Counted from the stretch's first letter, positions 515-29,439 are shown. The stretch: 32,000 bases of DNA from Candidatus Iainarchaeum sp. (GCA_016205145.1 JACQJH010000002.1:60001-92000), one strand, 5' to 3'. Notes: generated by a model from the sequence alone, not told the origin. Program-made: numbers and translations.

Positions 515-673
515 CAGCACACCAGACGGAAAAAAGAAAGAAAATGATAAGAAAATAATAGTTGGCTAACATTTAAAATAAAAAGGTTTGTCATGCAGCC
601 AGAAAAAACCGCAAGCGCAAGCCAGCATTTAAAAAAAAGCTAAAAAAACAGGAAAAAGATGCCTGCAAAAAAA

Positions 674-736
674 GCTTACTCGGCGTTCTGCGATAGCAGA
701 ACGCCTTGGTTTCGAACCAGCCGGACGAAACCGGCT
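674..736 (-). repeat. Copy A of a modular two-hairpin element, followed by a T7 run
   Basis: Minus-strand read: AGCCGG-TTTCGT-CCGGCT GG TTCG AAACCAA GGCGTTCTGC-TATC-GCAGAACGCC GAGTAAGC TTTTTTT. It starts inside the stop codon of the small ORF 735..917. Related copies are at 2697-2767, 26744-26897 and 28342-28366. Confidence 0.8.
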
Positions 737-917
737 ATTTGCAGGCCGGGCAGACGCCTTTGACGTGCGCAAGCTTTGACACGCCGAACAGGCCCAAGGC
801 CGTGCCCGCGACAAGGTGGGCAGTGCTGACATCCAATGATTTCATGCCCATCAAAAGAAACGAAACGCCTGCCACAAGGACAAGAACGCCCATAACCAAT
901 CCACAGTTCCCTTTCAT
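735..917 (-). CDS. Small (60 aa) two-TM membrane protein with C-terminal CPAC
   Basis: ORF track 735..917. GGAGG lies about 8 nt upstream of the ATG, and a TATA-like ATCTTATAAC lies further upstream. Two hydrophobic segments. No family recognised. Confidence 0.5.
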   Translation of the reverse strand: MKGNCGLVMGVLVLVAGVSFLLMGMKSLDVSTAHLVAGTALGLFGVSKLAHVKGVCPACK

Positions 918-2690: not shown

Positions 2691-2696
2691 AAAAAA

Positions 2697-2767
2697 CCAG
2701 CCGGCTTACCCGGCCTTTCACAAAAAGTGAAAGGCCTTGGTTTCGCTCCACGCAGCCGAAACTGCGT
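2697..2767 (-). repeat. Copy B of the two-hairpin element, filling the whole gap between tRNA-Glu and the thiD start codon
   Basis: Minus-strand read: ACGCAG-TTTCGG-CTGCGT GG AGCG AAACCAA GGCCTTTCAC-TTTTT-GTGAAAGGCC GGGTAAGC CGGCTGG TTTTTT ATG(thiD). Confidence 0.8.
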
Positions 2768-2770
2768 AAT

Positions 2771-2845
2771 TGCTCCGACCGGGATTCGAACCCGGGTTAC
2801 CGGCTTGAAAGGCCAGTGTGCTTGGCCGGACTACACCATCGGAGC
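2771..2845 (-). tRNA. tRNA-Glu (anticodon UUC), no intron, CCA not encoded
   Basis: Reverse complement GCTCCGATGGTGTAGTCCGGCCAAGCACACTGGCCTTTCAAGCCGGTAACCCGGGTTCGAATCCCGGTCGGAGCA folds as a cloverleaf. It has a 7-bp acceptor, a TTCGAAT T-loop and anticodon loop CTTTCAA. Confidence 0.93.
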
Positions 2846-2976
2846 TTCTGCCTGTGCGCTTTTTTAATTGTTTTGCTTTAAAAAAACTTAATAGCAAGCA
2901 GGATTTTAATTGGATTCTGTTAAGACTAGTTCAATATTGAATTGTTTTTAAGGCTATCATTGGCTGGTGAGGTTTA

Positions 2977-3138
2977 ATGGCAAAGTTTGAGGTTGCTGTG
3001 GCAAGGCTTTTTGAGAACGTCTGGATCTGCATGAAATGCAATGCGCGCAATCGCGGCAGCGAGGGCAAGAAGCCTGACCGCTGCAGGAAATGCGGCAGCA
3101 TCAGGCTCAGGTTGAAGCATAAAACCAAGAAGGCTTGA
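2977..3138 (+). CDS. rpl40e: Ribosomal protein L40e (53 aa)
   Basis: Own translation; the ORF is below the track cutoff. MAKFEVAVARLFENVWICMKCNARNRGSEGKKPDRCRKCGSIRLRLKHKTKKA has the C4 zinc-ribbon pattern and length of archaeal L40e. GGTGAGG lies 6 nt upstream of the ATG. Confidence 0.85.
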   Translation: MAKFEVAVARLFENVWICMKCNARNRGSEGKKPDRCRKCGSIRLRLKHKTKKA

Positions 3139-3143
3139 ATGAA

Positions 3144-3962
3144 ATGGACATCGCCGGTTTTGTGAGGCTTGCAAGGCCAGTCAACTGCCTAATGGCATCC
3201 GTTGCGGTTCTGGCGGGCTTTGCCGTTTCATCCGGTTCTTTTTCCTTCGGAATGCCGGTTCTGCTTGCAATGGCGGCCGCGTTCCTGGTCTGCGCCGCGG
3301 GCCAGACGGTGAACGACTATTTTGACCACAAAATCGACGCGGTTCTGCATCCAGACAGGCCGATTCCGAGCGGCAACGTCAAGCATTATGACGCACTGAT
3401 CTTTGCCATGCTTTTGTTCATTGCAGGCAACTACCTTGCCGCGCAAATCAATTACATTGCGTTCGTGATCGCCGCGACGATTTCAGTGCTCCTGTTCTTT
3501 TACTCCGCATTCATGGAGAAATTCAAATACGTTGGCAACTGGGTCGTAGCGCTTGGGACTTCCCTGACTCTGGTTTTCGGCGCAACCATAGCCATGGACT
3601 TTTACGCGGTTTCATTCCTTGCCGCGCTTGCATTGTTCTCCAATGTCGGCAGGGAGATAACCAAGGACTTTGAGGACAGGGAAAAAGGCGAAACGGGGAA
3701 AATTACCTTGCCGAGGCTCATCGGAAAGAAAGCCAAGCTTGTTGTCCTGTCCCTGTTTTTCGCCGCAATTGCGTTGAGCTATTTTGTTTTCTTTGCGGGA
3801 ATTTTCGGCAACATTTTTTATCCTGCAATAGTTTCGCTTGCAAATCTGGCTTTCCTTTACGCGTTCCTGCTTCTCAAAAACGATTCGTTTGAAAAGGCGC
3901 AGAAATACTGCAAGCTCGGCATGGTTTTGGCCCTGGCGGCATTCTTTGCCGGCGCAATGTAG
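3144..3962 (+). CDS. UbiA-family prenyltransferase, probable digeranylgeranylglyceryl phosphate synthase
   Basis: NDYFDHKIDAVLHPDRPIPSG (first Asp-rich motif) and KDFEDRE (second motif). About 8 TM helices. The ATG at 3144 is preferred over the track TTG at 3135. Confidence 0.85.
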   Translation: MDIAGFVRLARPVNCLMASVAVLAGFAVSSGSFSFGMPVLLAMAAAFLVCAAGQTVNDYFDHKIDAVLHPDRPIPSGNVKHYDALIFAMLLFIAGNYLAAQINYIAFVIAATISVLLFFYSAFMEKFKYVGNWVVALGTSLTLVFGATIAMDFYAVSFLAALALFSNVGREITKDFEDREKGETGKITLPRLIGKKAKLVVLSLFFAAIALSYFVFFAGIFGNIFYPAIVSLANLAFLYAFLLLKNDSFEKAQKYCKLGMVLALAAFFAGAM

Positions 3963-3970
3963 GTGTGCCG

Positions 3971-4918
3971 ATGCGCCAGGCCCTGCTGGAAAAGATTTCG
4001 GGCCTGCTTAAACGGAACGGGTTTTTCGTTTCAACCTTTTTCGCGTCAAACTCGTGCTTCGACATCATAGCAAAAAAGCCCGGGACCGGCACGATAATCC
4101 TGAAGGCGCTTGAGAACATCGATGCCATCAGGCCCGGCCAGGCCGCGGAACTCGAACGCCTCGCGGAAGTCTTCGGCTGTTCAGCCATGATTGTCGGGGA
4201 AAAGACAAAGGCTTTCAGGCTCAACGACAACACGGTTTATTCGCGGTACGGCATTTACGCCGTCAGCTTCGCCACACTGGAAAATTTTTTTTCCGGCAGG
4301 ATTCCGGAGATAAGCTATTTCAAGGGCAAGGAAATAGTGGAGCTTGACCCTGAACTGCTCAGGAGAAAAAGGCTTGAATCGCAGTTGTCGTACGCATCCC
4401 TTGCCGACAGCCTTGGCACGACGATTGAAACATTGTACCGCTACGAGCAGGGCAACAAGGCTTCCCTGGAAATGGCAAAAAGGCTCGAGGACTTTTTCGG
4501 CCAGGGATTCGTGAAGGAAATAGACTTTTTCGGGCGCAGGGAAAAAGCCAAATCGGAAAAATCGGAAAAGCCGGCGCCCGCACCGCAAGGAAACAAAAGC
4601 GACCTGGCGGAAAGGCTCGAAAAACTCGGCGCCAGTGTTTCGGTTTTCAGGCACGCGACATTCCACGAGGCCGCGCTCGGCGGAAAGGAAAGGCTTGTCA
4701 TAAGCGAGGCCGCTTCAAAGCGTGAAATCCTCCGCAAGGCCCCGGCGCTTGAAAAAACCGGCTCAGCACTGGAGGCTCATTCCGTGATTTTCGTTGACAG
4801 CCAGAAAGACGCGGGAATGCGCGGCCTTGACACCCCGCTCATGGAGAAAGAGGAAATCGCCTCGGTTTCAAAGTTCAAGGACATCATAAGACTTATCAAG
4901 GAAAAGAAAAAAGATTAA
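3971..4918 (+). CDS. Archaeal putative HTH-type (XRE-like) transcriptional regulatory protein
   Basis: About 315 aa. The N-terminal GFFVS..SCFDIIAKK..ILKALENID region and a central cro/C1-type HTH (LSYASLADSLGTTIETLYRYEQG) match the conserved archaeal family of this architecture. AGGTG lies 6 nt upstream of ATG 3971. Confidence 0.75.
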   Translation: MRQALLEKISGLLKRNGFFVSTFFASNSCFDIIAKKPGTGTIILKALENIDAIRPGQAAELERLAEVFGCSAMIVGEKTKAFRLNDNTVYSRYGIYAVSFATLENFFSGRIPEISYFKGKEIVELDPELLRRKRLESQLSYASLADSLGTTIETLYRYEQGNKASLEMAKRLEDFFGQGFVKEIDFFGRREKAKSEKSEKPAPAPQGNKSDLAERLEKLGASVSVFRHATFHEAALGGKERLVISEAASKREILRKAPALEKTGSALEAHSVIFVDSQKDAGMRGLDTPLMEKEEIASVSKFKDIIRLIKEKKKD

Positions 4919-4965
4919 CGAAATAGAAATGAAAAATCAGAGAGAAATGAAAAACCCGAGCAGGA

Positions 4966-5991
4966 TCAGAACCACTTGTCGAGGCTGCTCTGGTTGCCCT
5001 TTTCCTGCGCCTTTGCCTCGATTTTTTTCAGGGCATTCGAAACGCGTTCCTCGGAAAAGCCGCGCTGTGCGCACAGGAAGTCGATTATTTTTTCGCACTG
5101 GGGCTCTCGGAATTCAAGCGAATAGCTTGTTTCAGGCTTCTGCTCCAGAAAAATCTCTTCAATTTTGCGGTAGTCGAAATCCGGTGCGTGCCCGGTTTCC
5201 TCAATAATTTTTTCGAACGAATCGTGCGCCTGCACAAGCTTGAGCGCTGTTTTAGGGCCGACCTTTGGAAACTTTTCATTGAAGTCCGTGCCGACCAGGA
5301 TGCCTATCCAGACCAGTTTGCGGCGGTCGATGTTGAGAATGCGCAAAGTCTTTTCAAGTTCGATGCGCTCCGGCTCAACATCAATGTAGATGTTCCTGCC
5401 GGGAACCTTTCTCTTGCCGGAAACAGCGATGTTCCTGAACAGCAATGGCGCGCCGAAAAGCAATGAATCGTAGTCCTGTGAAACGCAGCCGAAAACATCG
5501 CCTTTCGCGCACATGAATGCTGCCTGCGCCTCGCCCTCGCTCGGCGCCTGGACAATCGGAATGCCCATCAGGGACGCAAGCTCTTTTGCTTCTTTCACCA
5601 TGTCGCCGGTGATTGTCGCGGCCTGCGAGGCAAACTTTCTGGCATCCTCTTCCCTGCCCTCGCGCTTTGCCAGCTCGAATTTTTCCTTCGCCTGCGTCCT
5701 GATTGCCGAACGCTTTTCGCGGGTTTCGGCTTTCAGCTCGGATGGCTTGCCGTCGAAAACAAAAACCGGCCTGATGCCCTTTTCCATCAGGTTTGTCGTG
5801 CGGTAAAGCATTCCAGTGAGATGGCTTGTAATCCTGCCCCTCGAATCCATCAAAGGCGTGCCGTCCTGCCCGCGGATGGTTGAAACGAACTGGTAAAGCG
5901 TGTTGAAAGCGTCAACCCCGACAATCCTGCCCTGCAAGTGCTCAAGAGAAATCTTCTCCTTTTCCAAAAGCTCGCCGATTTGGGTGCCCAT
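4966..5991 (-). CDS. fen: Flap endonuclease 1
   Basis: 341 aa. MGTQIGELL..GRIVGVDAFNTLYQF..DSRGRITSHLTGMLYRTTNLMEKGIRPVFVFDGKPSELK, XPG-N and XPG-I regions, and a C-terminal PIP-like SSLDKWF. Confidence 0.95.
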   Translation of the reverse strand: MGTQIGELLEKEKISLEHLQGRIVGVDAFNTLYQFVSTIRGQDGTPLMDSRGRITSHLTGMLYRTTNLMEKGIRPVFVFDGKPSELKAETREKRSAIRTQAKEKFELAKREGREEDARKFASQAATITGDMVKEAKELASLMGIPIVQAPSEGEAQAAFMCAKGDVFGCVSQDYDSLLFGAPLLFRNIAVSGKRKVPGRNIYIDVEPERIELEKTLRILNIDRRKLVWIGILVGTDFNEKFPKVGPKTALKLVQAHDSFEKIIEETGHAPDFDYRKIEEIFLEQKPETSYSLEFREPQCEKIIDFLCAQRGFSEERVSNALKKIEAKAQEKGNQSSLDKWF

Positions 5992-6600: not shown

Positions 6601-7863
6601 CTACTTTTTACCGAAAACCGCGTTTTTGCCGAGGCAGTCCTCTATGCGCAGCAGCTGGTTGTATTTCGCGTTGCGGTCGCTTCTGGCCGGGCCGCCGAAC
6701 TTGCTTTGCCCGCAGCCCAAACCTACAACCAGATCTGAAATGAATGAATCCTCGGTTTCGCCGGACCTGTGGGAAACAACGACGTTCCAGCCGCTGCCGG
6801 AAGCAAGCTTTGATGCGTCAATGCTTTCGCTGAGCGTTCCAATCTGGTTGACCTTCAAAAGCAGTGCGTTGCACGATTTTTCTTCAATGGCGCGCTCAAT
6901 GCGCGTTGTATTCGTCACAAGCAAATCGTCACCGACGATTTGAATTTTTTTGCCAAGCTTTGAATTCAATTCCTTCCATCCCGGCCAATCCTGCTCGGCC
7001 AGGCCATCCTCGATGGAAACAACAGGATAAGTTTTGCAAAGCCCTGCATAAAAGTCCGCAAGCTCGCCCGCGGAATATTTTTTGCCGTAGAGATGGTACG
7101 CGGAACCGTCGAAGAATTCCGATGCCGCGGAATCAAGCGCAATTTCAATTTTGCCGCCATAGCCGGCCTGGCTGACCGCTTCAAGCATGAAGTCCAGCCT
7201 TTCCTGAACAGACTTAACAGGCGGAACAAAGCCCCCTTCGTCGCCTAGAAGCGTGGCCTGGGCGCCGAACTTTTTTTTCAAAATTTTTCCAAGGCAATGG
7301 TAGCTTTCAACCGACATCTGCAGCGCCTCTGAAAAGCTTTTCGCGCCGGATGGGAAAAACATCTGTTCCTGTATGTCCTGTTCCAGGCCGGCGTGCTTTC
7401 CGCCGTTGAGGACATTAAGCTGCGGCACGGGCAGGCAGAATTTTTTGTTGCCCGCAATGCTTCCCAAATGCTCGAAAAGCGCAATTCCCTTTGACGCTGC
7501 GCCGGCCCTTGCGCAGGCAAGCGAAACCGAAAGGATTGCATTCGCGCCGAGGCTTGACTTGTTTTCCGTGCCGTCGATGCCGAGCAGAAAATTGTCGATT
7601 TCCCGCTGGTTTTCCGGGTTCATGCCCAGAGTTTTCGGGCAGATTTTTTTGTTGACGTTTTCAACGGCTTTCAGTACGGACTTGCCGCCGAAACTTTTTC
7701 CCCCATCCCTCAATTCAAGCGCCTCGAACGAGCCTGTCGACGCGCCGCTCGGCACGATTGCAGAAAAAACGCCTTTTTCTGTTTTGACTTCCGCTTCTAC
7801 AGTTGGATTGCCCCTTGAATCCAGAACCTGCCTTGCATGAACCGACAAAATCTTTGACACCAT
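6601..7863 (-). CDS. eno: Enolase (phosphopyruvate hydratase)
   Basis: The true start is the internal ATG at 7863 (MVSKILSVHARQVLDSRGNPTVEAEV..SGASTGSFEALELRD..), with GGTGAGG upstream. The C-terminal SHRSGETED motif is present. The 134-aa N-terminal extension in the track ORF (to 8265) is an artefact that overlaps mbf1. Confidence 0.95.
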   Translation of the reverse strand: MVSKILSVHARQVLDSRGNPTVEAEVKTEKGVFSAIVPSGASTGSFEALELRDGGKSFGGKSVLKAVENVNKKICPKTLGMNPENQREIDNFLLGIDGTENKSSLGANAILSVSLACARAGAASKGIALFEHLGSIAGNKKFCLPVPQLNVLNGGKHAGLEQDIQEQMFFPSGAKSFSEALQMSVESYHCLGKILKKKFGAQATLLGDEGGFVPPVKSVQERLDFMLEAVSQAGYGGKIEIALDSAASEFFDGSAYHLYGKKYSAGELADFYAGLCKTYPVVSIEDGLAEQDWPGWKELNSKLGKKIQIVGDDLLVTNTTRIERAIEEKSCNALLLKVNQIGTLSESIDASKLASGSGWNVVVSHRSGETEDSFISDLVVGLGCGQSKFGGPARSDRNAKYNQLLRIEDCLGKNAVFGKK

Positions 7864-7934
7864 GTTTTCCTCACCCGCAAGAAAAGATAACCGGCATTTG
7901 GTTATTAAGTTTTTCTTTGCCAAAGTTCTTCTGC

Positions 7935-8504
7935 ATGCAATGCGAAATCTGCGGCAAAAGCTTTTCAACCGGAAAAAAAGTCGAACTTGACGGAACGCTA
8001 ATGTTCGCGTGCGAAGACTGCGCCGGCTTCGGCAAGGCAAAAGAGGACATAAGGCCGATTGTGCGGGAAAAGCCGAGGCAAAACCCGAATGCCGGCAGGC
8101 ATGGCACGGCCGGACAGGCATTTGCGCCCGCGCCAAAAACCCTTGACACGCAATTCGATTTTGGCCTCGATTTGGCACCGGATTTCGGCCGGAAAATCCG
8201 GCACGCAAGGGAAAAGCAGGGCATGACAATCGAAGAGCTTGGCCTGAAAGCCTACGTTCCGGCATCCGAAATCAGGCGCATCGAATCGCAGTCACTGAAA
8301 CCCAATGATTTGCTCATAAAAAAGCTTGAATCGTGCCTCGGCATTTCTCTTAAGGAAAAAAGTGCCGGCAAAAGCGCGCCGGAAGGAAAAACCGCTACAG
8401 CACAGCCGGCAAAAAATGCCTTGCTGGGCGGGTCAACGCACGCTTTCACTCTTGGCGACATGATAAAAAGGAAGTCAGAGGAAAAACAGCAAAGTGAAAA
8501 GTGA
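7935..8504 (+). CDS. mbf1: Archaeal multiprotein bridging factor 1 (zinc ribbon plus XRE HTH)
   Basis: From the internal ATG at 7935: MQCEICGKSF..FACEDCAGFG (C4 ribbon), then HTH KIRHAREKQGMTIEELGLKAYVPASEIRRIE. Divergent from eno across a 71-nt gap. Confidence 0.85.
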   Translation: MQCEICGKSFSTGKKVELDGTLMFACEDCAGFGKAKEDIRPIVREKPRQNPNAGRHGTAGQAFAPAPKTLDTQFDFGLDLAPDFGRKIRHAREKQGMTIEELGLKAYVPASEIRRIESQSLKPNDLLIKKLESCLGISLKEKSAGKSAPEGKTATAQPAKNALLGGSTHAFTLGDMIKRKSEEKQQSEK

Positions 8505-8509
8505 AATCT

Positions 8510-9916
8510 ATGGCCGACCTTTTTTTGCTGTTCTCCGCATTCCTCGCCTTCGCGCTCATCACGACCTGGCTGCTGAAAAGGTTTGCCGGCGCGCAGACTT
8601 TTTACGTCGCCTCTCTTGTCCGGACGACCAAACTTTTGCATCTGCTTGACAAGCCGCTGTTTCTCGGAAAATGGCTCGACAGGCTCTGCGACCTCGGTTT
8701 TGTTCTGGGCTTCGGGGCGCTTGCCGTGGATTACCTGCATGGCAGGAAAAGAAAACCGTGGCAGCGCGCCGGCATCTTCGTTGTTTCATCCGCAATCCTG
8801 TTCATTTTTTTTGAAACTGTTTTTGCGGCAGTTCTCTCAAACCCATTCATTGCCGGTGAACAGCGCCTGCTGTCGGTTTTCTTCGCGCTGTCCGGCTTTG
8901 CGGGTTTCACTATTGCCTCGCTTGCGGCATACGCGGTTTTCATAATCTCGAATTCGCTGGCAGGCCAGGCGGTCTGCCCCGGCATCGCGCCGATCATTCC
9001 GGGCGTTGACATTCCAAAAGTGCCGATTTCCGTGCCCCTGCACGCGTGGATATCGTTTTTCATCATTCTCGCGGTGCATGAGGGAATGCACGGCGTTCTG
9101 GCAAAAAGGTTCAAGGTCAAAATAAAGAGCGCGGGCCTGCTTTTGCTCGGCCTGCTTCCCATCGGGGCGTTCGTCGAACCAGACGAGGAAAAGCTCAAAA
9201 AAATAAAGCACCAGAATGCCATAAGGATTTTCAGCGCAGGCCCGACAGCAAACCTGCTGTCCGTACTGGCAATAATAATCGCAGCCAACCTGGTTGTTGC
9301 ATTCGTGTTCATGCCGTTCATTTTCCCGCAGGCGCAGAAAATCAGGAACAGCATTTCCGCAGGCGTTTTTGTGGGGGAAGTCGAAAAGGAAATCAGCTTC
9401 TGCGGAAAAAAATATTCCAGCCCGGCCAGCGGAATACTTGACGGGGGAATGCAGATAGTTGCCGTCAACGGCGTCAAAGTCAAAACCCTTGCGGAACTCG
9501 TGCCAAAACTGCAGGAAAAAGCAGCAAACACTTTCACTGTCTTGGACGCGCAGGGCAATGTTTCCGAAAAAACCGTTGTCCCGAACGAACTCGGCGCAAT
9601 GGGCTTTGCCGTCGAGGAAAAACAGAAGGAAAACGCCGTTGTGCCGCAATGGTACAAGGCGTACTCCGAAATTGTTTCGTTCCTGGCAAGCTTTTTCGTG
9701 TGGCTGGCCATTTTGAGCGTTCTTGTCGGCATAGTCAACTTCCTGCCGGTTGAGCCCTTTGACGGCGGAAAAATAGCAAAGCTTTTGCTCCTGCCATATT
9801 TTTCATTCGCAAAAATGCCGGAAGAGGACACGAAAAAGCTGATTGGCAGGATACTTGCATGGCTGGTTTTCAGCCTGCTCGCGATAAACGCTTTGCCGTT
9901 CATACTGCCGTTTTAA
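8510..9916 (+). CDS. Site-2 protease family (M50) intramembrane metalloprotease with PDZ-like insert
   Basis: HEGMHGVLAKR (HExxH) in a TM helix. Distal NFLPVEPFDGGKI (NxxPxxxxDG) motif. PDZ-like segment GMQIVAVNGVKVKTLAEL. ATG 8510 lies 6 nt after the mbf1 stop. Confidence 0.88.
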   Translation: MADLFLLFSAFLAFALITTWLLKRFAGAQTFYVASLVRTTKLLHLLDKPLFLGKWLDRLCDLGFVLGFGALAVDYLHGRKRKPWQRAGIFVVSSAILFIFFETVFAAVLSNPFIAGEQRLLSVFFALSGFAGFTIASLAAYAVFIISNSLAGQAVCPGIAPIIPGVDIPKVPISVPLHAWISFFIILAVHEGMHGVLAKRFKVKIKSAGLLLLGLLPIGAFVEPDEEKLKKIKHQNAIRIFSAGPTANLLSVLAIIIAANLVVAFVFMPFIFPQAQKIRNSISAGVFVGEVEKEISFCGKKYSSPASGILDGGMQIVAVNGVKVKTLAELVPKLQEKAANTFTVLDAQGNVSEKTVVPNELGAMGFAVEEKQKENAVVPQWYKAYSEIVSFLASFFVWLAILSVLVGIVNFLPVEPFDGGKIAKLLLLPYFSFAKMPEEDTKKLIGRILAWLVFSLLAINALPFILPF

Positions 9917-10970: not shown

Positions 10971-11193
10971 CATCTGTTTTTCGTCTTTTGCCGTTTTCCG
11001 GCATTGCTTTTTATTCGGAATGGCACGACCGGCGCATCAGAAAAAAGGCGACTACCGCGGTTTTAAGGCTTCAGCCCCGCCAATTCAATCAATTGCAGAT
11101 AAACTGGTTGCAGGCACGCCTGACAAAATAGAAAAAAAGAAATGGAAGGGAGAAGGCAAACGCCCCTCCCTAAAAAAAGTTTTGGCCGGCCGC

Positions 11194-12285
11194 TTACCTG
11201 ATGAAATCCAGGCCTATGTCGTTCCTGCCGCTGCCCCTGCTTCTTGACGAAGCAGAGGAGGACTCCGGACTCCCGCTCTTTATGTAAGGGGAGTGCACGC
11301 CAGTGAAAACCGTGATGACTTCCATCTTGTTTTCAAAGGTCGGGTCAACCCTCGCACCCCAGATGACCGTTGCATTGGGATCGATCCTTTCCGTGAGCAG
11401 TTCGCCGACGGCGTTCGCATCTCCAAGAGTCAGTTCGGGTCCGCCGGTGATGTGGATGAGCGCGCCCGTTGCCCCGGTGATGTCAACGTCAAGCAAGGCG
11501 TTCTTGAGGGTGTCCTCGACAACCTCGCCGACCTTGTTGACCGACTTGGATTCGCCGACTGCTATGACTGAAAGGCCCTTGTTGCTCATTACAGACCTGA
11601 CGTCCGCGTAGTCCAGGTTGATCAAAGACGGCTGGGTTATTGTTTCGGTTATGCCCCTGACTGTCCTTGCTATGACTTCGTCCGCAACCTTGAATGCGTC
11701 CTGAATCGGCAGGTTCGGCACCAGTTCGACAAGCCTGTTGTTGTCGATTACGACAACCGTGTCGGTTACGCCGCGCAAAGCGTCAATGCCTTCCTCGGCC
11801 TTGATGAGCCTTGCCTTTTCCAAAGCGAAAGGATAGGTGACCATTGCAATGACAATTGCGCCCTGCTCCTTTGCGATTTCGGAAACAATCGGCGCTGAGC
11901 CTGTGCCCGTGCCGCCGCCCATGCCCGCGCAGACAAACAACAAGTCGACGCCGGACAAAACCTCTTCCAGTGCGCCCCTTGAAACTTCCGCTGCCTTCGA
12001 GCCGATTTCAGGGTAGCCGCCCGCGCCAAGACCGCGCGTCACGGACTTTCCGATAAGAATCTTTGTCAGCTCGTCGCTCACCAATGCGAGGTGCTGCTTG
12101 TCAGTGTTGATTGCGACAAGCTGTGCGCCGCTGATGCCCATTGTTGCGAGCCTGTTGACTGTGTTGCAGCCTGCGCCGCCGCAGCCAATAACCATTATTT
12201 TAGGCGTGCCAAACTCTTCCAGCTTGTCATCCTCGACTTTGGACTGCGAAGACTTCTGGACGGCACTATCTATAACAGATTTCAC
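11194..12285 (-). CDS. ftsZ: Cell division GTPase FtsZ
   Basis: IMVIGCGGAGCNTVNRL, tubulin signature GMGGGTGTGSAPIVSEIAKE, and NLDYADVRSVM. GTG start with GGGGTGG upstream. Confidence 0.95.
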   Translation of the reverse strand: MKSVIDSAVQKSSQSKVEDDKLEEFGTPKIMVIGCGGAGCNTVNRLATMGISGAQLVAINTDKQHLALVSDELTKILIGKSVTRGLGAGGYPEIGSKAAEVSRGALEEVLSGVDLLFVCAGMGGGTGTGSAPIVSEIAKEQGAIVIAMVTYPFALEKARLIKAEEGIDALRGVTDTVVVIDNNRLVELVPNLPIQDAFKVADEVIARTVRGITETITQPSLINLDYADVRSVMSNKGLSVIAVGESKSVNKVGEVVEDTLKNALLDVDITGATGALIHITGGPELTLGDANAVGELLTERIDPNATVIWGARVDPTFENKMEVITVFTGVHSPYIKSGSPESSSASSRSRGSGRNDIGLDFIR

Positions 12286-12980: not shown

Positions 12981-13053
12981 GCCCAGGTAGCTCAGTAGGT
13001 AGAGCAATCGGCTGTTAACCGATCGGTCGCAGGTTCAAGTCCTGCCCTGGGCG
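12981..13053 (+). tRNA. tRNA-Asn (anticodon GUU), no intron
   Basis: GCCCAGGTAGCTCAGTAGGTAGAGCAATCGGCTGTTAACCGATCGGTCGCAGGTTCAAGTCCTGCCCTGGGCG folds as a cloverleaf with anticodon loop CTGTTAA. T-rich sequence follows. Confidence 0.93.
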
Positions 13054-13463: not shown

Positions 13464-14276
13464 TTATTTTTTTGCTTTTACCTGTTCTTTTTCAATCTGC
13501 CCCAGTTTTTCGTGCGCGATCTGCGCGGCTTTTTCCCCGCTCAAGAACATTGCCCCAAAAATGGGGCCCATTCTCGGCAGGCCGTAAGCCGAGTTGACGG
13601 CCATTCCGCATACAACCAGGCCGGGATAGATTTCCTGCGTCTGTTCGACCGTCACTTTTTCGGATTTGTCGGCCCACATGCTGCCCTCTCTGCCGCGCAC
13701 TGGAAACCCGATTTTGTCGCCGGCAACGGAAACTATTTCTGTTGCATGGCCTGACGCGTCAATGACTATTTTTGACCTGAACGCCAGCGGGTCGACGCAG
13801 GTAACCCATTCCGGGTAGTTTGAGACGGCGTGCCAGTTTGCTACGACTCCTTTTATGCCGTCGTCGCGGTAAACCACGTCAACCACTTCGACCGCGTTCA
13901 GCATTCTTGCGCCGGCATCAAGGGCCTTTGCAAGCAGCTTTGTGGAAACCTCGCATGCGTCCCCGACATAGAGGCTGTCCTTGTAGGGCTTCATCGACCT
14001 GACGCCCGCTTCCCTGAGCAAATGCATTGCATTTTCCTCGACGACAAGCTTGTTCATCAGCATTCCGCCCAGATACATGCCCCCGCCCGGCTTGATGTTT
14101 TTTTCCATTACCACCACTTTATGGCCTTTTTCGGCAAGCTTCCATGCCGCAATCGTGCCGGCAGGCCCGGAGCCAATCACTATGGCATCGGCATCCGTGC
14201 ACGAATAGAGTTCCTGCATGAACTCCGAAATTATCGCCTGCGAAATGTCCTTTTCGTCTATTTCAGTTTTAGCCAT
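13464..14276 (-). CDS. thi4: Thiamine thiazole synthase (Thi4 family)
   Basis: 270 aa. DAIVIGSGPAGTIAAWKLAEKG (FAD dinucleotide fold), then EKNIKPGGGMYLGGMLMNKLVV, typical of archaeal Thi4. GGAGGT lies 9 nt upstream of the ATG. Confidence 0.9.
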   Translation of the reverse strand: MAKTEIDEKDISQAIISEFMQELYSCTDADAIVIGSGPAGTIAAWKLAEKGHKVVVMEKNIKPGGGMYLGGMLMNKLVVEENAMHLLREAGVRSMKPYKDSLYVGDACEVSTKLLAKALDAGARMLNAVEVVDVVYRDDGIKGVVANWHAVSNYPEWVTCVDPLAFRSKIVIDASGHATEIVSVAGDKIGFPVRGREGSMWADKSEKVTVEQTQEIYPGLVVCGMAVNSAYGLPRMGPIFGAMFLSGEKAAQIAHEKLGQIEKEQVKAKK

Positions 14277-14308: not shown

Positions 14309-14446
14309 TCAGATTCTTTTGACTATTATGTCCTTGCCACGGACAACGTACCGCAGCAAACCGCGCTGGGCCATGCCCTTTTCGCGCAGCTCGTTCAGGA
14401 TTTCCATTGAAAGCGTTTTCGCGTTGACTTTTCCCTGATGCCTCAA
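14309..14446 (-). CDS. Candidate 45-aa ORF coupled to the thiE stop (TTGA overlap)
   Basis: Own translation from TTG 14446: MRHQGKVNAKTLSMEILNELREKGMAQRGLLRYVVRGKDIIVKRI. GGAGGTG lies 5 nt upstream, inside the thiE 3' end. It fills most of the 166-nt thiE-thi4 gap. No family recognised. Confidence 0.3.
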   Translation of the reverse strand: MRHQGKVNAKTLSMEILNELREKGMAQRGLLRYVVRGKDIIVKRI

Positions 14447-15096
14447 GATTGCACCTCCAAATGTTTGCCTTTGCGCACGCTTGCCTTTGCATTTCGGATC
14501 AGCGCCTCGATTTGCGCCGCCTTTTCCCGCACGTTTTCCGCACAGGCGATTTCCGAAACCATGCATGCGAAATCCGCGCCCGCGCAGATGACCGATTCAA
14601 CGTTTTCCGCTTTTATTCCGCCGATTGCGCCAAGCGGCTTGGAAACAGCCGCACGCGTTTCCCTTAGAACTTCAAGACCGAGAGGCGGGGTTGAATGGTG
14701 TTTTGTGCTTGTCGGAAAAATGTGGCCGAGGCTCAGGTAGTCGACATGAAAATCATCGGCCCGCCGTGCCTGTTCAACAGAATGCACGGTACGGCCCAGA
14801 ATGCCGGAAAAATGCCTTCGGATGTCTTCCACGCTTAAGTCGTCTTCGCCGGCGTGCAACCCGTCAGCGTCAGAGGCAAGGGCAATGTCCAGCCTGTCGT
14901 CAACAATGAAGTCCGCCCTGCCGGCGCAGATTTTTTTCAGCTTTTTCGCGGTTTCCGACATCGTGCGCGAATCAAGGCTTTTTTCGCGGTATTGCACGGC
15001 CCTGACGCCGGCATTGACGGCCGCTTCGGCGTCATCCAGAACGGTTTTTACTGTAAGCCGCGAATCGGTTATGAAATAAAGGTTCCAGCCGCGCAT
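14443..15096 (-). CDS. thiE: Thiamine-phosphate synthase
   Basis: LYFITD.. VRAVQYREK.. DGLHAG.. IGGIKAENV motifs of ThiE. ATG 15096 is preferred over the track TTG 15141 because TATA-like TTTTTAAAATC lies about 30 nt upstream of 15096. Confidence 0.88.
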   Translation of the reverse strand: MRGWNLYFITDSRLTVKTVLDDAEAAVNAGVRAVQYREKSLDSRTMSETAKKLKKICAGRADFIVDDRLDIALASDADGLHAGEDDLSVEDIRRHFSGILGRTVHSVEQARRADDFHVDYLSLGHIFPTSTKHHSTPPLGLEVLRETRAAVSKPLGAIGGIKAENVESVICAGADFACMVSEIACAENVREKAAQIEALIRNAKASVRKGKHLEVQS

Positions 15097-15318
15097 GCAA
15101 ACCGAAAGACAAAAGAGCGGAATTGATTTTAAAAACGGCAAAAAAAATTCCGCGAAAACCGGGCAAAATTCGGTGTTCGACGGAATTTAAGCCGGCTGTA
15201 AAATATTGACCGGCCCCATGGTTACCCGCATCCTCGTTCGTCCTTGACCAGCCCAATCATGTGCTGATTTCATCATACTTCTTCATACAAGCGCATACCA
15301 TAGCTTCTGCGAAACAAA

Positions 15319-22340: not shown

Positions 22341-22970
22341 CTAAAACATTCTCACGGCAATCAGGCGGCCTTTTTTGAGGCTTATCAGGGCCTTTCTTCC
22401 CGCAAGCTCGTTGCTCATTCCCCTGCCTTCGCCCACTTTCAGGGAAATGTTGCGCGCATTGAATTTGAATCCGGACAATGACAGGCCGGAAACGTTTTCA
22501 ACCGGAATCAGGGAAACCCTGTCGCCCTTTTTTCCTTTGACCGCGCGGCTTTTGCGCACAAGGAACAGCTCGCTTTTTTCCTCTAGAATGCGCGCGTCAA
22601 CGCCTTCCGGCACCTGCGACAACAGCATGACGTTTGAAAGCAGATGATCGGTGCGGCTGCCGGTTGCGCCCAAAAAAACTATTTCCCTGAAGCCGTGCTC
22701 CAGGGCAAGCCGCAAGGCAAGCTCCGAATCAGTGAAATTCATGTTTCTGGGATAGGCAAGCTTTTCCACTCCGGAAAAAATCCTTTTCGCGTTTTCCGTT
22801 ATCGAGTCCATGTCCCCGACAATTATGCCTGGAATGATTTTGGTCTTCAGGAAATGGTTCGCGCCGCCGTCCGCGCAAACGAGGAAATCGTTCTTTCGGC
22901 AGGTTTTTTCAATCAGGCCGGTTTCAATGTTGCCGTTGCAGGCTATGATTGCACGCTTTTGCGCAGCCAT
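22341..22970 (-). CDS. Thiamine pyrophosphokinase
   Basis: From ATG 22970: CADGGANHF..IPGIIVGDMDSI..NFTDSELALRLA..LGATGSRTDH, plus a C-terminal beta-sandwich. These are TPK catalytic motifs. Confidence 0.8.
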   Translation of the reverse strand: MAAQKRAIIACNGNIETGLIEKTCRKNDFLVCADGGANHFLKTKIIPGIIVGDMDSITENAKRIFSGVEKLAYPRNMNFTDSELALRLALEHGFREIVFLGATGSRTDHLLSNVMLLSQVPEGVDARILEEKSELFLVRKSRAVKGKKGDRVSLIPVENVSGLSLSGFKFNARNISLKVGEGRGMSNELAGRKALISLKKGRLIAVRMF

Positions 22971-22992
22971 GCTAAAAATGGCTTGGCAATAT

Positions 22993-23001
22993 GTTTTAAA
23001 C
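22993..23001. promoter_or_regulatory. Shared palindromic TATA element (GTTTTAAAC) between divergent TPK and VIT genes
   Basis: This is the only AT-rich box in the 62-nt divergent gap. It lies about 27 nt from ATG 22970 (-) and about 36 nt from ATG 23033 (+). Confidence 0.4.
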
Positions 23002-23032
23002 CAAATACAGGCCATTTGCCTTACTGGTCAAA

Positions 23033-26358: not shown

Positions 26359-26516
26359 ACGTCATGCCGGCAGAGAGGCTTCTTTTTAAATTTGTTTTAA
26401 TAGTCAAATAACCTATAGACTGCATGCGTTGCAGATGCCGGTTTGTTGCGAGCGCAGCGAGCCAGCCCGATGAAGCGAAGCGGAATCGGGCGCGTACCCG
26501 GCGGACGCGACGCCGT

Positions 26517-26743
26517 GCGGGGGTGGCGGAGTGGTCTAACGCGGCAGCCTGCTAAGACCCTTTTTCTTTCTTTGCGAAGAAAGAAAAAGTGTTCCGTTGC
26601 GAAATCAAAGATTTCGCGACGCGACGCAAAACCGAAAGGTTTTGCATCGTACCCCAAAAAGAAAGCCTTTCTTTTTGCGGAATAGAATGTTGCAGCAAGC
26701 TGTTTCCCGAAAGGGAGCGCGGGTTCGAATCCCGTCCCCCGCG
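26517..26743 (+). tRNA. tRNA-Ser (anticodon GCU) with a ~143-nt canonical-position intron (about 26555-26697)
   Basis: Exons are GCGGGGGTGGCGGAGTGGTCTAACGCGGCAGCCTGCTA and AGCTGTTTCCCGAAAGGGAGCGCGGGTTCGAATCCCGTCCCCCGCG. They give a 7-bp acceptor, a long variable arm (TCCC-GAAA-GGGA) and a TTCGAAT T-loop. Anticodon-loop CUGC pairs with intron-terminal GCAG to form the 4-bp core of a bulge-helix-bulge motif. Confidence 0.88.
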
Positions 26744-26897
26744 AGCCGTCACGCTCGGCTGGTGCGTGCACTATGCTCGTTTCACTCGCATAGCGCTGCG
26801 CGCTGTTGCGCGAAGCCGCCACAGCCGGCTGGTCTGAGCGCCATGCTTGGCATGGCCGAAACCAAGGCCTTTCACTGTTGTGAAAGGCCGAGTAAGC
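26744..26897 (+). repeat. Copy C (expanded) of the two-hairpin element, forming the tRNA-Ser trailer
   Basis: AGCCG-TCACGCT-CGGCT GG TGCG, then about 90 nt of extra GC-rich hairpins (CTATGC..GCATAG; GCCATGC-TTG-GCATGGC), then CG AAACCAA GGCCTTTCAC-TGTT-GTGAAAGGCC GAGTAAGC (26857-26897). Confidence 0.8.
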
Positions 26898-28078: not shown

Positions 28079-28148
28079 AAACGCAAAAACGCCAAGGCCA
28101 TGGCACGGCCCGGAAAAAACCGGCTGAAAGCATTCACCAAAAGCCAAA

Positions 28149-28158
28149 TTTATTTAAA
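28149..28158 (+). promoter_or_regulatory. TATA box (TTTATTTAAA) for tRNA-Leu
   Basis: About 30-35 nt upstream of the tRNA 5' end, implying a short leader. Confidence 0.5.
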
Positions 28159-28190
28159 TTGTCTCCCCCAAAATTGTTCTTTGCTTGCAT

Positions 28191-28340
28191 GCAGGGGTAG
28201 CGAAGTGGTTAAACGCGCCAGACTCAAGAAACCTTTTTTCTTTGGAAAAGAAAAAAGCTTTGCCAAAAAAGAAAGGCAAAAAAAGGTTTGAGCAATCTGG
28301 TGGCTTAGTGCCTTCGGGGGTTCGAATCCTCCCCCCTGCA
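28191..28340 (+). tRNA. tRNA-Leu (anticodon CAA) with a ~66-nt canonical-position intron (about 28229-28294)
   Basis: Exons are GCAGGGGTAGCGAAGTGGTTAAACGCGCCAGACTCAAG and ATCTGGTGGCTTAGTGCCTTCGGGGGTTCGAATCCTCCCCCCTGCA. They give a long variable arm and a TTCGAAT T-loop. CUCAA in the anticodon loop pairs with intron-terminal UUGAG (BHB core). Confidence 0.88.
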
Positions 28341-28341
28341 A

Positions 28342-28366
28342 AGCCGGTTTCGTCCGGCTGGTTCGA
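28342..28366 (+). repeat. Copy D (hairpin-1 module) of the element; exact 25-nt inverted-orientation match to 712-736
   Basis: AGCCGGTTTCGTCCGGCTGGTTCGA starts 2 nt after the tRNA-Leu discriminator. It is followed by a different hairpin (GGGTATT..AATACCC) and GAGAGTAA-A7. Confidence 0.85.
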
Positions 28367-28443
28367 CGACGGGTATTTCGCTTTTGCTCAATACCCATCT
28401 GCTTTTGAGAGTAAAAAAATGGCTGCATTCTTGCTAGCCCGGA

Positions 28444-29439
28444 CTACTTTTTCATCCACGCGATTATTTTGTCCGCCAGGCCGGAATCGTTTGCCAGCAT
28501 CTGCGTTCCGTGGCCGGCTTTTTCAAGGTTTATGAGTTCGGTGTTTTTCGGCGCGCCTGCCGCAATCTTCTGGCTTGAATCGTAGGAATACTTGTCGTCG
28601 GCGCTTGAAACAAGCAGGACTTTCGTCATGCCTTTCTGGCTGTTCATGGAACTCACCATGCCGCCGCTGACAGTCAGGCCATGGTAACTTTCTCCCGCGG
28701 ACAATAGGACGACTTTTTCGACTTCTGGGTTGCTTCTCGCGAAGTTGATGCCTGCATTAGCGCCGATGCTTGCGCCGGCAACGATTATGCCGTTGTTTGA
28801 AAGCTTGTCCTTTGTGCCGAAAAGGAAGTCTCTCGCAGACTTCTGGTCCTGCGTCAGCAATTGCCAGTCATCGTCAAGGAAGGCCTTGTAGGTTATTATG
28901 GAACCGTTCTGGATTTTGCTTTCGCCATGGCCCCTGAAATCAATTGCCAGGACATTATAGCCGGCATCCAGAAGCTTTGGAATGAAATTGTCCCAGACGT
29001 GCCTGTCGTTTCCGAGTTCGTGAAGCAGCAGAACGGTTTTGGCGCCGGCGCCGGAAAAATAAAAGTCTCCAACTATTGTCACGTTGTCGAATGTCCTGAA
29101 CGAAACCTTTTCAGGCTGAACGGCGGGAGTTTCGGTTTGCTGGGCGTTTCCGGAATCGCCAGACGTGCCGTCACCGGAGACTTCAGAATTCACGTCGTTT
29201 GTTTGCGTGTTGTCCTGGCTGCCGGTTCCGACTGCCGCATCAGCGTCATCTGTTTGGCTGCCGGCTTCGCCGGAAATTTCCGTGCCCGGCTGCTGTGCAT
29301 TGCCTCCGGTGTTTTCTGCCGCGCCGATGCCTGGCGCAGGCTCATTGGCCTGCGGTTTTTCCTGCTGCTGTGAAACGCAGCCTGCGGCAAGCGCAAGCAT
29401 GACAAACAACATTGCCATGGCAAAAAAAGCATTTTTCAT
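28444..29439 (-). CDS. Secreted lipoprotein alpha/beta-hydrolase
   Basis: Signal peptide with lipobox LAAGC. About 90 aa of low-complexity Q/T/D/G-rich linker. Then LLLHELG, DFRGHGES and nucleophile elbow GASIGA, with a C-terminal GHG. ATG 29439 has GGTGG 6 nt upstream. Confidence 0.8.
   Translation of the reverse strand: MKNAFFAMAMLFVMLALAAGCVSQQQEKPQANEPAPGIGAAENTGGNAQQPGTEISGEAGSQTDDADAAVGTGSQDNTQTNDVNSEVSGDGTSGDSGNAQQTETPAVQPEKVSFRTFDNVTIVGDFYFSGAGAKTVLLLHELGNDRHVWDNFIPKLLDAGYNVLAIDFRGHGESKIQNGSIITYKAFLDDDWQLLTQDQKSARDFLFGTKDKLSNNGIIVAGASIGANAGINFARSNPEVEKVVLLSAGESYHGLTVSGGMVSSMNSQKGMTKVLLVSSADDKYSYDSSQKIAAGAPKNTELINLEKAGHGTQMLANDSGLADKIIAWMKK

Follow-up and report, generated by a model that had tools for sequence, protein, structure and literature searches.

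Pseudoknotted, structured interspersed repeats at tRNA gene ends in a small clade of DPANN archaea

Introduction

Two described systems come closest to the repeated elements reported here. The first is the bacterial REP/BIME (REPIN)-RAYT system, which is built on short, GC-rich, structured repeats in transcribed extragenic DNA whose stems carry compensatory changes. These repeats are found in either orientation, form arrays, and turn over quickly, and all these properties are shared by the archaeal units. A further likeness would be that REP/BIME can act as 3′ RNA stabilizers or terminators. The second system comprises the tRNA-linked small RNAs (for example, the MHV68 TMERs, E. coli 3′ETS-leuZ, and the tRNA-C/D dicistrons). 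Like the units, these are structured RNAs located directly 3′ of a tRNA and ending in a T-run, and they are freed by a tRNA 3′ endonuclease, as would presumably also be the case for the units. The MHV68 TMERs are tRNA-pre-miRNA hairpins that are released by tRNase Z.

DPANN archaea have tiny genomes, and their RNA biology is poorly known. Here, five loci in the genome of such an archaeon (A, B, C, D, and E) are analyzed, which are best read as a lineage-specific family of structured interspersed repeats of ~60–80 nt.

Genomic context

The window, i.e., the whole stretch of 32,000 nucleotides that was analyzed, originates from an uncultured DPANN archaeon whose nearest GGR homologues outside its own small clade belong to ‘Micrarchaeota’ (about 60% identical). 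It harbors housekeeping genes, including those for enolase, FEN1, FtsZ, Thi4, ThiE, ThiD, FBPase, aldolase, and RibBA, and no transposase, integrase, reverse transcriptase, HUH nuclease, or RAYT was detected among the 30 proteins of the 32-kb window that were scanned against Pfam. Four thiamine genes (ThiD, Thi4, ThiE, and thiamine pyrophosphokinase) are spread over these 32 kb of a DPANN genome, at 1923–2690, 13464–14276, 14443–15141, and 22341–23015. The enolase ORF (6601–8265) encodes 554 aa with an Enolase_N domain from residue 139, and its first ATG is probably not the true start. Two long ORFs overlap on opposite strands (8501–9916 on the plus strand and 8731–9903 on the minus strand), of which the minus-strand ORF has no Pfam match.

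Four tRNA genes were identified in the window with Rfam: tRNA-Glu(UUC) (2771–2845, minus strand, CCA not encoded), tRNA-Asn (12981–13053, plus strand), tRNA-Ser (26517–26743, plus strand, 39.2 bits) with a very long intron, and tRNA-Leu (28191–28340, plus strand, 46.6 bits) with an intron of 69 nt. The latter two, with their long introns, were missed by ARAGORN. Both introns are A/U-rich, palindromic, and very long (69 to ~140 nt). The tRNA-Leu intron is nearly alike in the window and in a contig of a relative (L060:5017–5164), and the tRNA-Ser gene measures 227 nt in the window versus 166 nt in another relative (L057:2916–3081). A palindrome, TGCATGCA, spans the 5′ boundary of tRNA-Leu (28186–28193).

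Architecture of the units

A compact H-type pseudoknot, a further hairpin, and a short conserved tail make up each unit. In the pseudoknot, the loop of a 5–6 bp stem pairs with 5–6 nt that begin 3–4 nt past the stem. Two subtypes can be distinguished. Type I is characterized by UUUCG/CGAAA loop pairing, a hairpin of 10 bp behind a YYAA linker, and G(A/G)GUA(A/G/U)GC as its tail; A, B, the L006 copy, S1 and S2 of L057, X1 of L060, and the degenerate C3′ belong to this subtype. In type II, the pseudoknot varies in sequence, the hairpin measures 6–8 bp and has a UCG...CUC loop, and the tail is CUGC. This subtype includes C5′, E, L057m, and the body of D; the hairpin stems of these four members have four different sequences, all of which pair. 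Conserved motifs of the units are CGAAA, YYAA, and GAGUAAGC, and the exact motif CGAAACCAAGG occurs three times in the window.

Unit A (type I; 674–737, minus strand) scored 87.2 bits with the covariance model R1 (see below) and was also matched by the pseudoknot scan. Its stem 1 is formed by AGCCGG (736–731) and CCGGCT (724–719), which enclose the loop UUUCGU (730–725) and are followed by the L3 segment GGUU (718–715), the pseudoknot 3′ strand CGAAA (714–710), the linker CCAA (709–706), hairpin 2 (705–682), and the tail GAGUAAGC (681–674). Behind the unit lies a T7 run (667–673, minus strand) that, judged by its sequence, may be an archaeal oligo-T terminator. The first bases of unit A overlap the TAG stop codon (737–735) of a 60-aa small membrane-protein ORF (735–917, minus strand), which was called as a gene on Logan contig L012 and belongs to no Pfam family; a start inside a stop codon had also been claimed for this copy by a previous reading of the sequence alone (hereafter, the sequence-only reading).

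Unit B (type I; 2704–2768, minus strand; 91.5 bits with R1) has a near-identical orthologue in a relative (L011:2268–2333). Stem 1 is formed by ACGCAG (2767–2762) and CUGCGU (2755–2750) with the loop UUUCGG and the L3 segment GGAG, after which CGAAA (2745–2741), the linker CCAA, hairpin 2 (2736–2712), and the tail GGGUAAGC (2711–2704) follow. A T6 run (2691–2696, minus strand) abuts the ATG of thiD (2690). This run into the ATG (2688–2696) leaves no space for a separate promoter, and read-through from tRNA-Glu or a promoter within unit B may drive thiD expression. A thiD riboswitch at this position was considered and rejected, as the other copies have unrelated or no downstream genes.

Locus C accommodates two units on the plus strand. 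C5′ (type II; 26744–26799), detected by the pseudoknot scan and covariation, has a stem 1 of AGCCG (26744–48) and CGGCU (26756–60), the loop UCACGCU, an L3 segment GGU, the pseudoknot 3′ strand GCGUG (26764–68), a hairpin 2′ of CUAUGC (26771–76) and GCAUAG (26788–93), and the tail CGCUGC. C3′ (degenerate type I; 26823–26897) scored 52.9 bits with R1 (core 26842–26897). Its stem 1 has collapsed to AGCCGGCU, the loop is absent, and an extra hairpin is present (26840–56), followed by CGAAA (26857–61), CCAA, hairpin 2 (26866–89), and the tail GAGUAAGC (26890–97). The hairpin 2 stem is identical between B and C3′.

Unit D (28341–28419, plus strand) is a chimera, to which R1 assigned 25.7 bits (E 2.5e-4) at 28341–28402. 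Its type I head (28342–28366) is identical to the head of A, with the pseudoknot 3′ strand shortened to CGA, and is joined to a type II body composed of hairpin 2′ (GGGUAUU, 28371–77, with AAUACCC, 28390–96) and the tail AUCUGC, followed by GAGAGUA-A7. The 25-nt head common to A and D occurs twice versus zero occurrences expected. The two heads (712–736 and 28342–28366) constitute a perfect 25-nt inverted repeat, 27.6 kb apart, with CCTGCAA before each, and may be the trace of an inversion or of gene conversion; ordinary housekeeping genes occupy the sequence between them.

Unit E (type II; 26420–26516) is inverted, i.e., lies on the minus strand, and was recognized by the pseudoknot scan, by alignment with D, C5′, and L057m, and by covariation. 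It features a stem 1 of CGGCG (26515–26511) and CGCCG (26503–26499), the loop UCGCGUC, an L3 segment GGU, the pseudoknot 3′ strand ACGCG (26495–26491), a hairpin 2′ of CCCGAU (26490–26485) and AUCGGG (26471–26466), and a tail that ends in GCAUGCAGUC.

The four loci A–D thus exist as they had been described in the sequence-only reading, and R1 recovers all of them. The single architecture ascribed to them holds for A and B, but locus C consists of two units, D is chimeric, and the inverted fifth locus E had been overlooked. A weaker relative proposed behind ftsZ (11172–11198) was not recovered by R1; its GGTAAGC contains the ftsZ stop codon, and the resemblance is ascribed to chance. Two independent type I units have a C·A mismatch at position 7 of hairpin 2, and another one has a bulged A there (L057:3179–3202, L060:4962–4984, and L060:5200–5224); the opposite strand would pair G·U at this position.

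The pseudoknot and its covariation

The module had initially been interpreted as two hairpins with invariant, single-stranded flanks. The hairpins withstood closer inspection, but AAACCAA is more than a flank, since the loop of hairpin 1 pairs with CGAAA: the loop UUUCG is the exact complement of CGAAA, which lies 3–4 nt downstream of the stem. Units without UUUCG/CGAAA retain the loop pairing in the same register through other sequences, as seen in C5′ (AGCCG-uCACGCu-CGGCU-ggu-GCGUG, pairing CACGC/GCGUG), E (CGGCG-uCGCGUc-CGCCG-ggu-ACGCG, pairing CGCGU/ACGCG), and L057m (AGACG-uCAUCGCc-CGUCU-ggu-GCGAUG, pairing CAUCGC/GCGAUG). Both the pairing of the loop with a downstream strand and the covariation of both helices, as established on a hand-made alignment, are in line with an H-type pseudoknot. 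An L3 of 3–4 nt is short for crossing a 5–6 bp stem in H-type pseudoknots, so that the two helices may form in turn rather than at the same time.

MAFFT alignments of the pseudoknot heads and of the type II units were not structure-consistent, and a hand alignment was used in their place. For the pseudoknot, this alignment (A5) comprises nine heads and was built by hand and fitted to the structure, with N as gap placeholder. In this nine-head hand alignment, 98.9% of the cells are paired over the 12 pairs of both head helices, nine of which show double-sided changes; for the pseudoknot helix, 97.8% of the cells are paired and five of six pairs carry double changes. When the partners were slid by 1–3 columns as a control, pairing over the whole structure amounted to 30–48%. 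The nested stems were assessed on 10 model-aligned copies, where 94.9% of the cells are paired and 12 of 16 pairs are altered on both sides, which was equaled by none of 500 shuffles; these covariation statistics rest on copies that are related to one another. The seven double substitutions on which the sequence-only reading had based its claim of a repeated, RNA-like module under compensatory evolution proved correct, and the claim itself is borne out by the 10 copies.

Single-sequence folds compared with shuffled sequences gave z-scores of −4.4, −4.2, and −2.5. A sequence-agnostic pseudoknot descriptor (stem of 5–6 bp, loop of 6–8 nt, spacer of 3–4 nt, and at least 5 bp between the loop and the downstream strand) produced four matches in the window, all within units, versus 0.6 per shuffled window, and about nine distinct unrelated matches in ~460 kb of other loci. 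Taken from sequence comparison, this evidence clearly points to a fold that has been selected in the single-stranded state.

Copies in related genomes and their turnover

The covariance model R1 was trained on units A and B, the orthologue of B, and one metagenome copy and was run with filters off. Over the 32-kb window, it gave no credible match beyond loci A–D. Contigs of relatives were obtained via neighboring proteins, and sequence collections were scanned with the pattern CGAAACCAAGG-N18-28-CCGRGTAAGC. Further copies were found in four contigs of relatives (L006, L011, L057, and L060). The copy at L006:1780–1844 is the only true one among seven JGI metagenome pattern matches; it begins 4 nt past tRNA-Gln and has T9 at its end. 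The B orthologue is located on L011 and is nearly unchanged in this relative, whose ThiD is 85% identical. In L057 (GGR 95% identical), tandem type I units with new stem sequences follow tRNA-Ser (3082–3145 and 3147–3210), and a third, inverted unit (2915–2856) abuts the 5′ end of the same gene. L060 (RibBA 84% identical) contains a complete type I unit behind tRNA-Leu (5016–4954; stem 1 GCCCGC/GCGGGC) and an inverted, partly degenerate unit (5168–5232) that abuts the tRNA-Leu 5′ end. The known set amounts to ~13 units from about three to four closely related genomes.

Outside this group, the searches were negative. In the GTDB genomes, a collection that excludes the window's genome, all three matches fell in bacterial coding sequence and lacked the fold. 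IMG/VR yielded 34 and 18 loci in two relaxed scans, with best R1 scores of 18–20 bits that are pattern-driven, and hence no viral copy. The best viral match (L067:7784–7847, IMG/VR contig 3300014913_000026; R1 19.7 bits, E 0.034) has CGAAAUCAAGG, a partly paired hairpin, and CCGAGUA, lacks the UUUCG loop, and was judged a by-product of the search pattern. No unit was present in distant Micrarchaeota/Diapherotrites loci (~120 kb; ThiD 46–51% and GGR 61–62% identity), an absence that is weakly informative because few tRNAs occur there. In agreement with the sequence-only reading, which recognized no known RNA family, only tRNAs reach the gathering score of Rfam 15, and a search with unit A and L057 S1, S2, and m at E up to 10 yielded sub-threshold chance matches only. 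No description of the repeat was found in the literature. So far, the repeat is confined to one small DPANN clade.

Within this clade, units have been gained, lost, and swapped between relatives whose neighboring proteins are 84–95% identical, and they are also located at rearrangement breakpoints. The trailer of tRNA-Ser carries a type II unit and a degenerate type I unit in the window versus two type I units in L057. The leader of tRNA-Leu has no unit in the window versus a ~125-nt array of modules in L060, with the same promoter motif in both. The position orthologous to the chimeric unit D holds a complete type I unit in L060. Unlike the tRNA-Ser and tRNA-Leu loci, unit B is almost unchanged between relatives. 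In L060, a glycosyltransferase, an 85-aa ORF, and a short-chain dehydrogenase (2767–4953) lie between the tRNA-Leu trailer unit and a hydrolase; these three genes are missing from the window (28403–28444), where the breakpoint falls within unit D. The motif GCATGCA borders the L060 leader array (~5164–5280) on both sides and is present as one copy in the window. It is the sole candidate for a target duplication, and deletion microhomology is equally possible; its recurrence at the array borders (also at 26421–26427) could be explained by a target-site duplication, by microhomology in recombination, or by its belonging to the type II tail.

Placement at the ends of tRNA genes

Units flank three of the four tRNA genes in the window, and tRNA-Asn has none. 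That three copies lie tight on tRNA 3′ ends (Glu, Ser, and Leu) had already been proposed from the sequence, and the Rfam coordinates agree: stem 1 of B (from 2767) follows the end of tRNA-Glu at 2771, the stem of C (from 26744) follows that of tRNA-Ser at 26743, and the stem of D (from 28342) follows that of tRNA-Leu at 28340, with spacings of 0–3 nt past the discriminator base. With the relatives included, trailer units begin 0–4 nt past the discriminator of tRNA-Glu, -Ser, -Leu, and -Gln, either singly or in tandem. On the 5′ side, inverted units adjoin tRNA-Ser in the window and in L057, and tRNA-Leu in L060. Every tRNA-adjoining unit points its pseudoknot end toward the tRNA; eight trailer units are in sense, and four leader units are inverted. 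Among type I units, seven of eight are in sense and intact, and the sole antisense copy is degenerate and has lost its pseudoknot and tail. Oligo-T runs are found behind A, B, and the L006 copy.

TATA-like boxes sit outside the leader units. A TATA-like box, TTTTTAAAT (26384–26392, plus strand), lies upstream of the tRNA-Ser leader, with a like arrangement in L057, and a promoter-like motif, CAAATTTATTTAAATTGTC (28145–28163, plus strand), lies ~30 nt upstream of tRNA-Leu in the window and ~150 nt upstream in L060. Because the promoter-like boxes are outside them, the leader units would be transcribed as antisense copies; going by its position, unit E would form an antisense segment of a ~100-nt tRNA-Ser leader.

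Interpretation and alternatives

Our tentative preference is for a REP/MITE-like structured repeat that is transcribed in pre-tRNAs, probably with an additional, strand-specific role as trailer RNA; a dedicated small RNA ranks second and a selfish single-stranded DNA element third, and both remaining explanations are unlikely. The polarity on both sides of the tRNA, the arrays and chimeras, and the homogenization within a genome combined with fast replacement are REP/MITE-like behavior. Of the roles offered by the sequence-only reading, a REP/MITE-like palindromic unit fits the turnover best, and a purely sense-strand 3′-end function would not predict the inverted leader copies. According to the preferred explanation, the units would insert 3′ of the tRNA cloverleaf in single-stranded DNA on either strand. 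Since the acceptor stem is self-complementary, such an insertion on either strand would account for the mirror-like head-to-tRNA arrangement. The units would then evolve as REP/MITE-type repeats through birth and death, gene conversion among copies, and recombination breakpoints. They would be transcribed within pre-tRNA trailers or leaders, and tRNase Z or RNase P would detach them from the tRNA. Type I units would additionally provide a stable 3′ structure in the primary tRNA transcript ahead of an oligo-T terminator and might be released by tRNase Z as a pseudoknot-capped small RNA of ~65–75 nt. Type I probably has a host role because seven of its eight copies are in sense and intact and the only antisense copy is degenerate; together with the conserved unpaired motifs, this bias in the sequences suggests an additional role at the RNA level. 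Several points argue against the preferred explanation: no transposase, reverse transcriptase, or HUH nuclease was detected in the window, the unit ends are not inverted repeats of each other, i.e., they lack the terminal inverted repeats of a MITE, the sole candidate target duplication may equally be deletion microhomology, and covariation in a pseudoknot is more typical of functional RNAs than of DNA repeats. The short L3, the hand fitting of alignment A5, and the small set of ~13 known units also count against it.

The second explanation is a dedicated small RNA or RNP, which we regard as doubtful. Type I units would be co-transcribed with the tRNA, and tRNase Z would release them, leaving a defined 5′ end at which the pseudoknot would shield them from 5′–3′ decay. 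They would act in trans or bind a protein via the unpaired tail G(A/G)GUA(A/G/U)GC and the YYAA linker, and the inverted and degenerate copies would be recombination by-products. The positions of the units fit the class of tRNase Z-released small RNAs (0–4 nt past the discriminator, a T-run behind, and the promoter upstream of the tRNA). The conservation of the unpaired motifs alongside covarying stems, the fact that seven of the eight type I units lie in sense within a trailer or 3′ UTR and that the antisense copy is broken, the T-runs at the end of several units, and the nearly unchanged B orthologue at 85% ThiD identity all speak for such an RNA. On the other hand, type II units with intact pseudoknots are present in antisense in leaders, the unit content at orthologous tRNAs is replaced between close relatives, and neither a target nor a partner is identifiable.

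A purely selfish element is improbable. Here, single-stranded DNA would be moved by a trans-encoded HUH/Y1-type transposase that reads the folded hairpins and inserts them 3′ of cloverleaf-forming tRNA DNA on either strand, with no RNA function involved. The two orientations, which are always head-to-tRNA, the arrays, chimeras, and degenerate copies, the differing presence and absence among relatives, and the segments homogenized within a genome are consistent with this proposal. Yet no HUH/Y1 enzyme was found within the 32 kb, the junctions lack a conserved target tetranucleotide, and type I is biased to the sense strand. Moreover, a 5–6 bp Watson-Crick pairing between loop and flank is not known from REP/RAYT or IS200/IS605-PATE systems.

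Far less probable are processing stems in which an inverted leader unit pairs with a sense trailer unit, extending the acceptor stem into a long duplex that, akin to the processing stems of archaeal rRNA, would be cut by endonucleases. The minimum free energy structure of the window's pre-tRNA-Ser does pair the leader (26430–26516) with the trailer (26744–26830), and this leader prefers its own trailer (−54.8 versus −35 to −42 kcal/mol). However, duplex and separate local folds are energetically tied (−84.1 versus −83.6 kcal/mol), and the leaders of L057 and L060 show no preference for their own trailers. The tRNA-Glu, tRNA-Gln, and window tRNA-Leu genes have trailer units and plain, short leaders, four of the seven tRNA loci examined have no complementary partner on the other side, and no bulge-helix-bulge motif was seen. 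Finally, a pistol-like, small self-cleaving ribozyme that trims the trailer has next to no credibility, for although the order of elements resembles pistol and a cut at this position would be useful, no Rfam ribozyme family was matched even at E up to 10, an equivalent of pistol P2 is absent, stem 1 and the pseudoknot strand are linked by just 3–4 nt, and the conserved nucleotides of type I are missing from type II.

It is conceivable, albeit not probable, that the units represent a new class of archaeal element whose fold is read by the tRNA maturation machinery or by a mobility enzyme that recognizes the cloverleaf in single-stranded nucleic acid and places the unit head-first at either tRNA gene end. 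If true, this would be the first structure-targeted, tRNA-boundary-specific repeat in Archaea, and type I would be an abundant pseudoknotted small RNA produced via tRNase Z. The units might stand for an unrecognized layer of pre-tRNA processing or small RNAs, or for a mobile element with a novel target choice, namely tRNA boundaries on both strands. In practical terms, they mark rearrangement breakpoints, would interfere with the annotation of tRNAs and the assembly of contigs in these MAGs, and provide a ready lineage marker.

Comparison with known systems

Several mobile or structural elements were considered as identities and rejected. IS200/IS605-derived PATEs do not fit, as the junctions differ (GCA|AUU, GCG|, GCA|A, CUA|AGCG, and CGC|A) and show no fixed target of 4–5 nt. 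An integron attC site is not present either: the tail GTAAGC has no GTT core, and there is no complementary R″ at the 5′ end. For the K-turn, loop E/sarcin-ricin, hammerhead, HDV-like, H/ACA, C/D, and group II domain 5 motifs, inspection by eye revealed that required motifs or spacing are absent.

Three systems share single features with the units. In pistol, too, a hairpin loop and a downstream strand form a ~5–6 bp pseudoknot, behind which a short linker leads to a second hairpin and a 3′ tail, but the units have neither a P2 helix nor the pistol consensus nucleotides nor an Rfam match, and their tail has no P2 partner. Type III antitoxin RNAs (ToxI-like) are likewise short pseudoknot units that can be arranged in tandem and are cut from a precursor. 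The units, in contrast, are not beside a toxin gene, are tRNA-linked and dispersed, are about twice as long, and contain an extra hairpin. TYMV-type tRNA-like structures resemble the units in that stem and pseudoknot helix total ~11–12 bp, similar to an acceptor/T minihelix, and ACCA follows this helix in four type I units. The ACCA of the units, however, is internal rather than 3′-terminal, is ACUA or AUUA elsewhere, and is missing in type II; a mimic of the acceptor minihelix plus ACCA was rejected for this lack of conservation.

The two closest systems also differ from the units in distinct ways. Compared with bacterial REP/BIME, the units are archaeal, combine a pseudoknot with a second hairpin instead of a single palindrome, and have no GTAG-type 5′ motif; they are located almost exclusively at tRNA ends with a fixed polarity, and no RAYT is known for them. 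Compared with the tRNA-linked small RNAs, the units form an H-type pseudoknot, are repeated behind many tRNAs, and are also found inverted in leaders. The family is best called a previously undescribed repeat with kin among two known kinds, the structured interspersed repeats and the tRNA-linked trailer RNAs.
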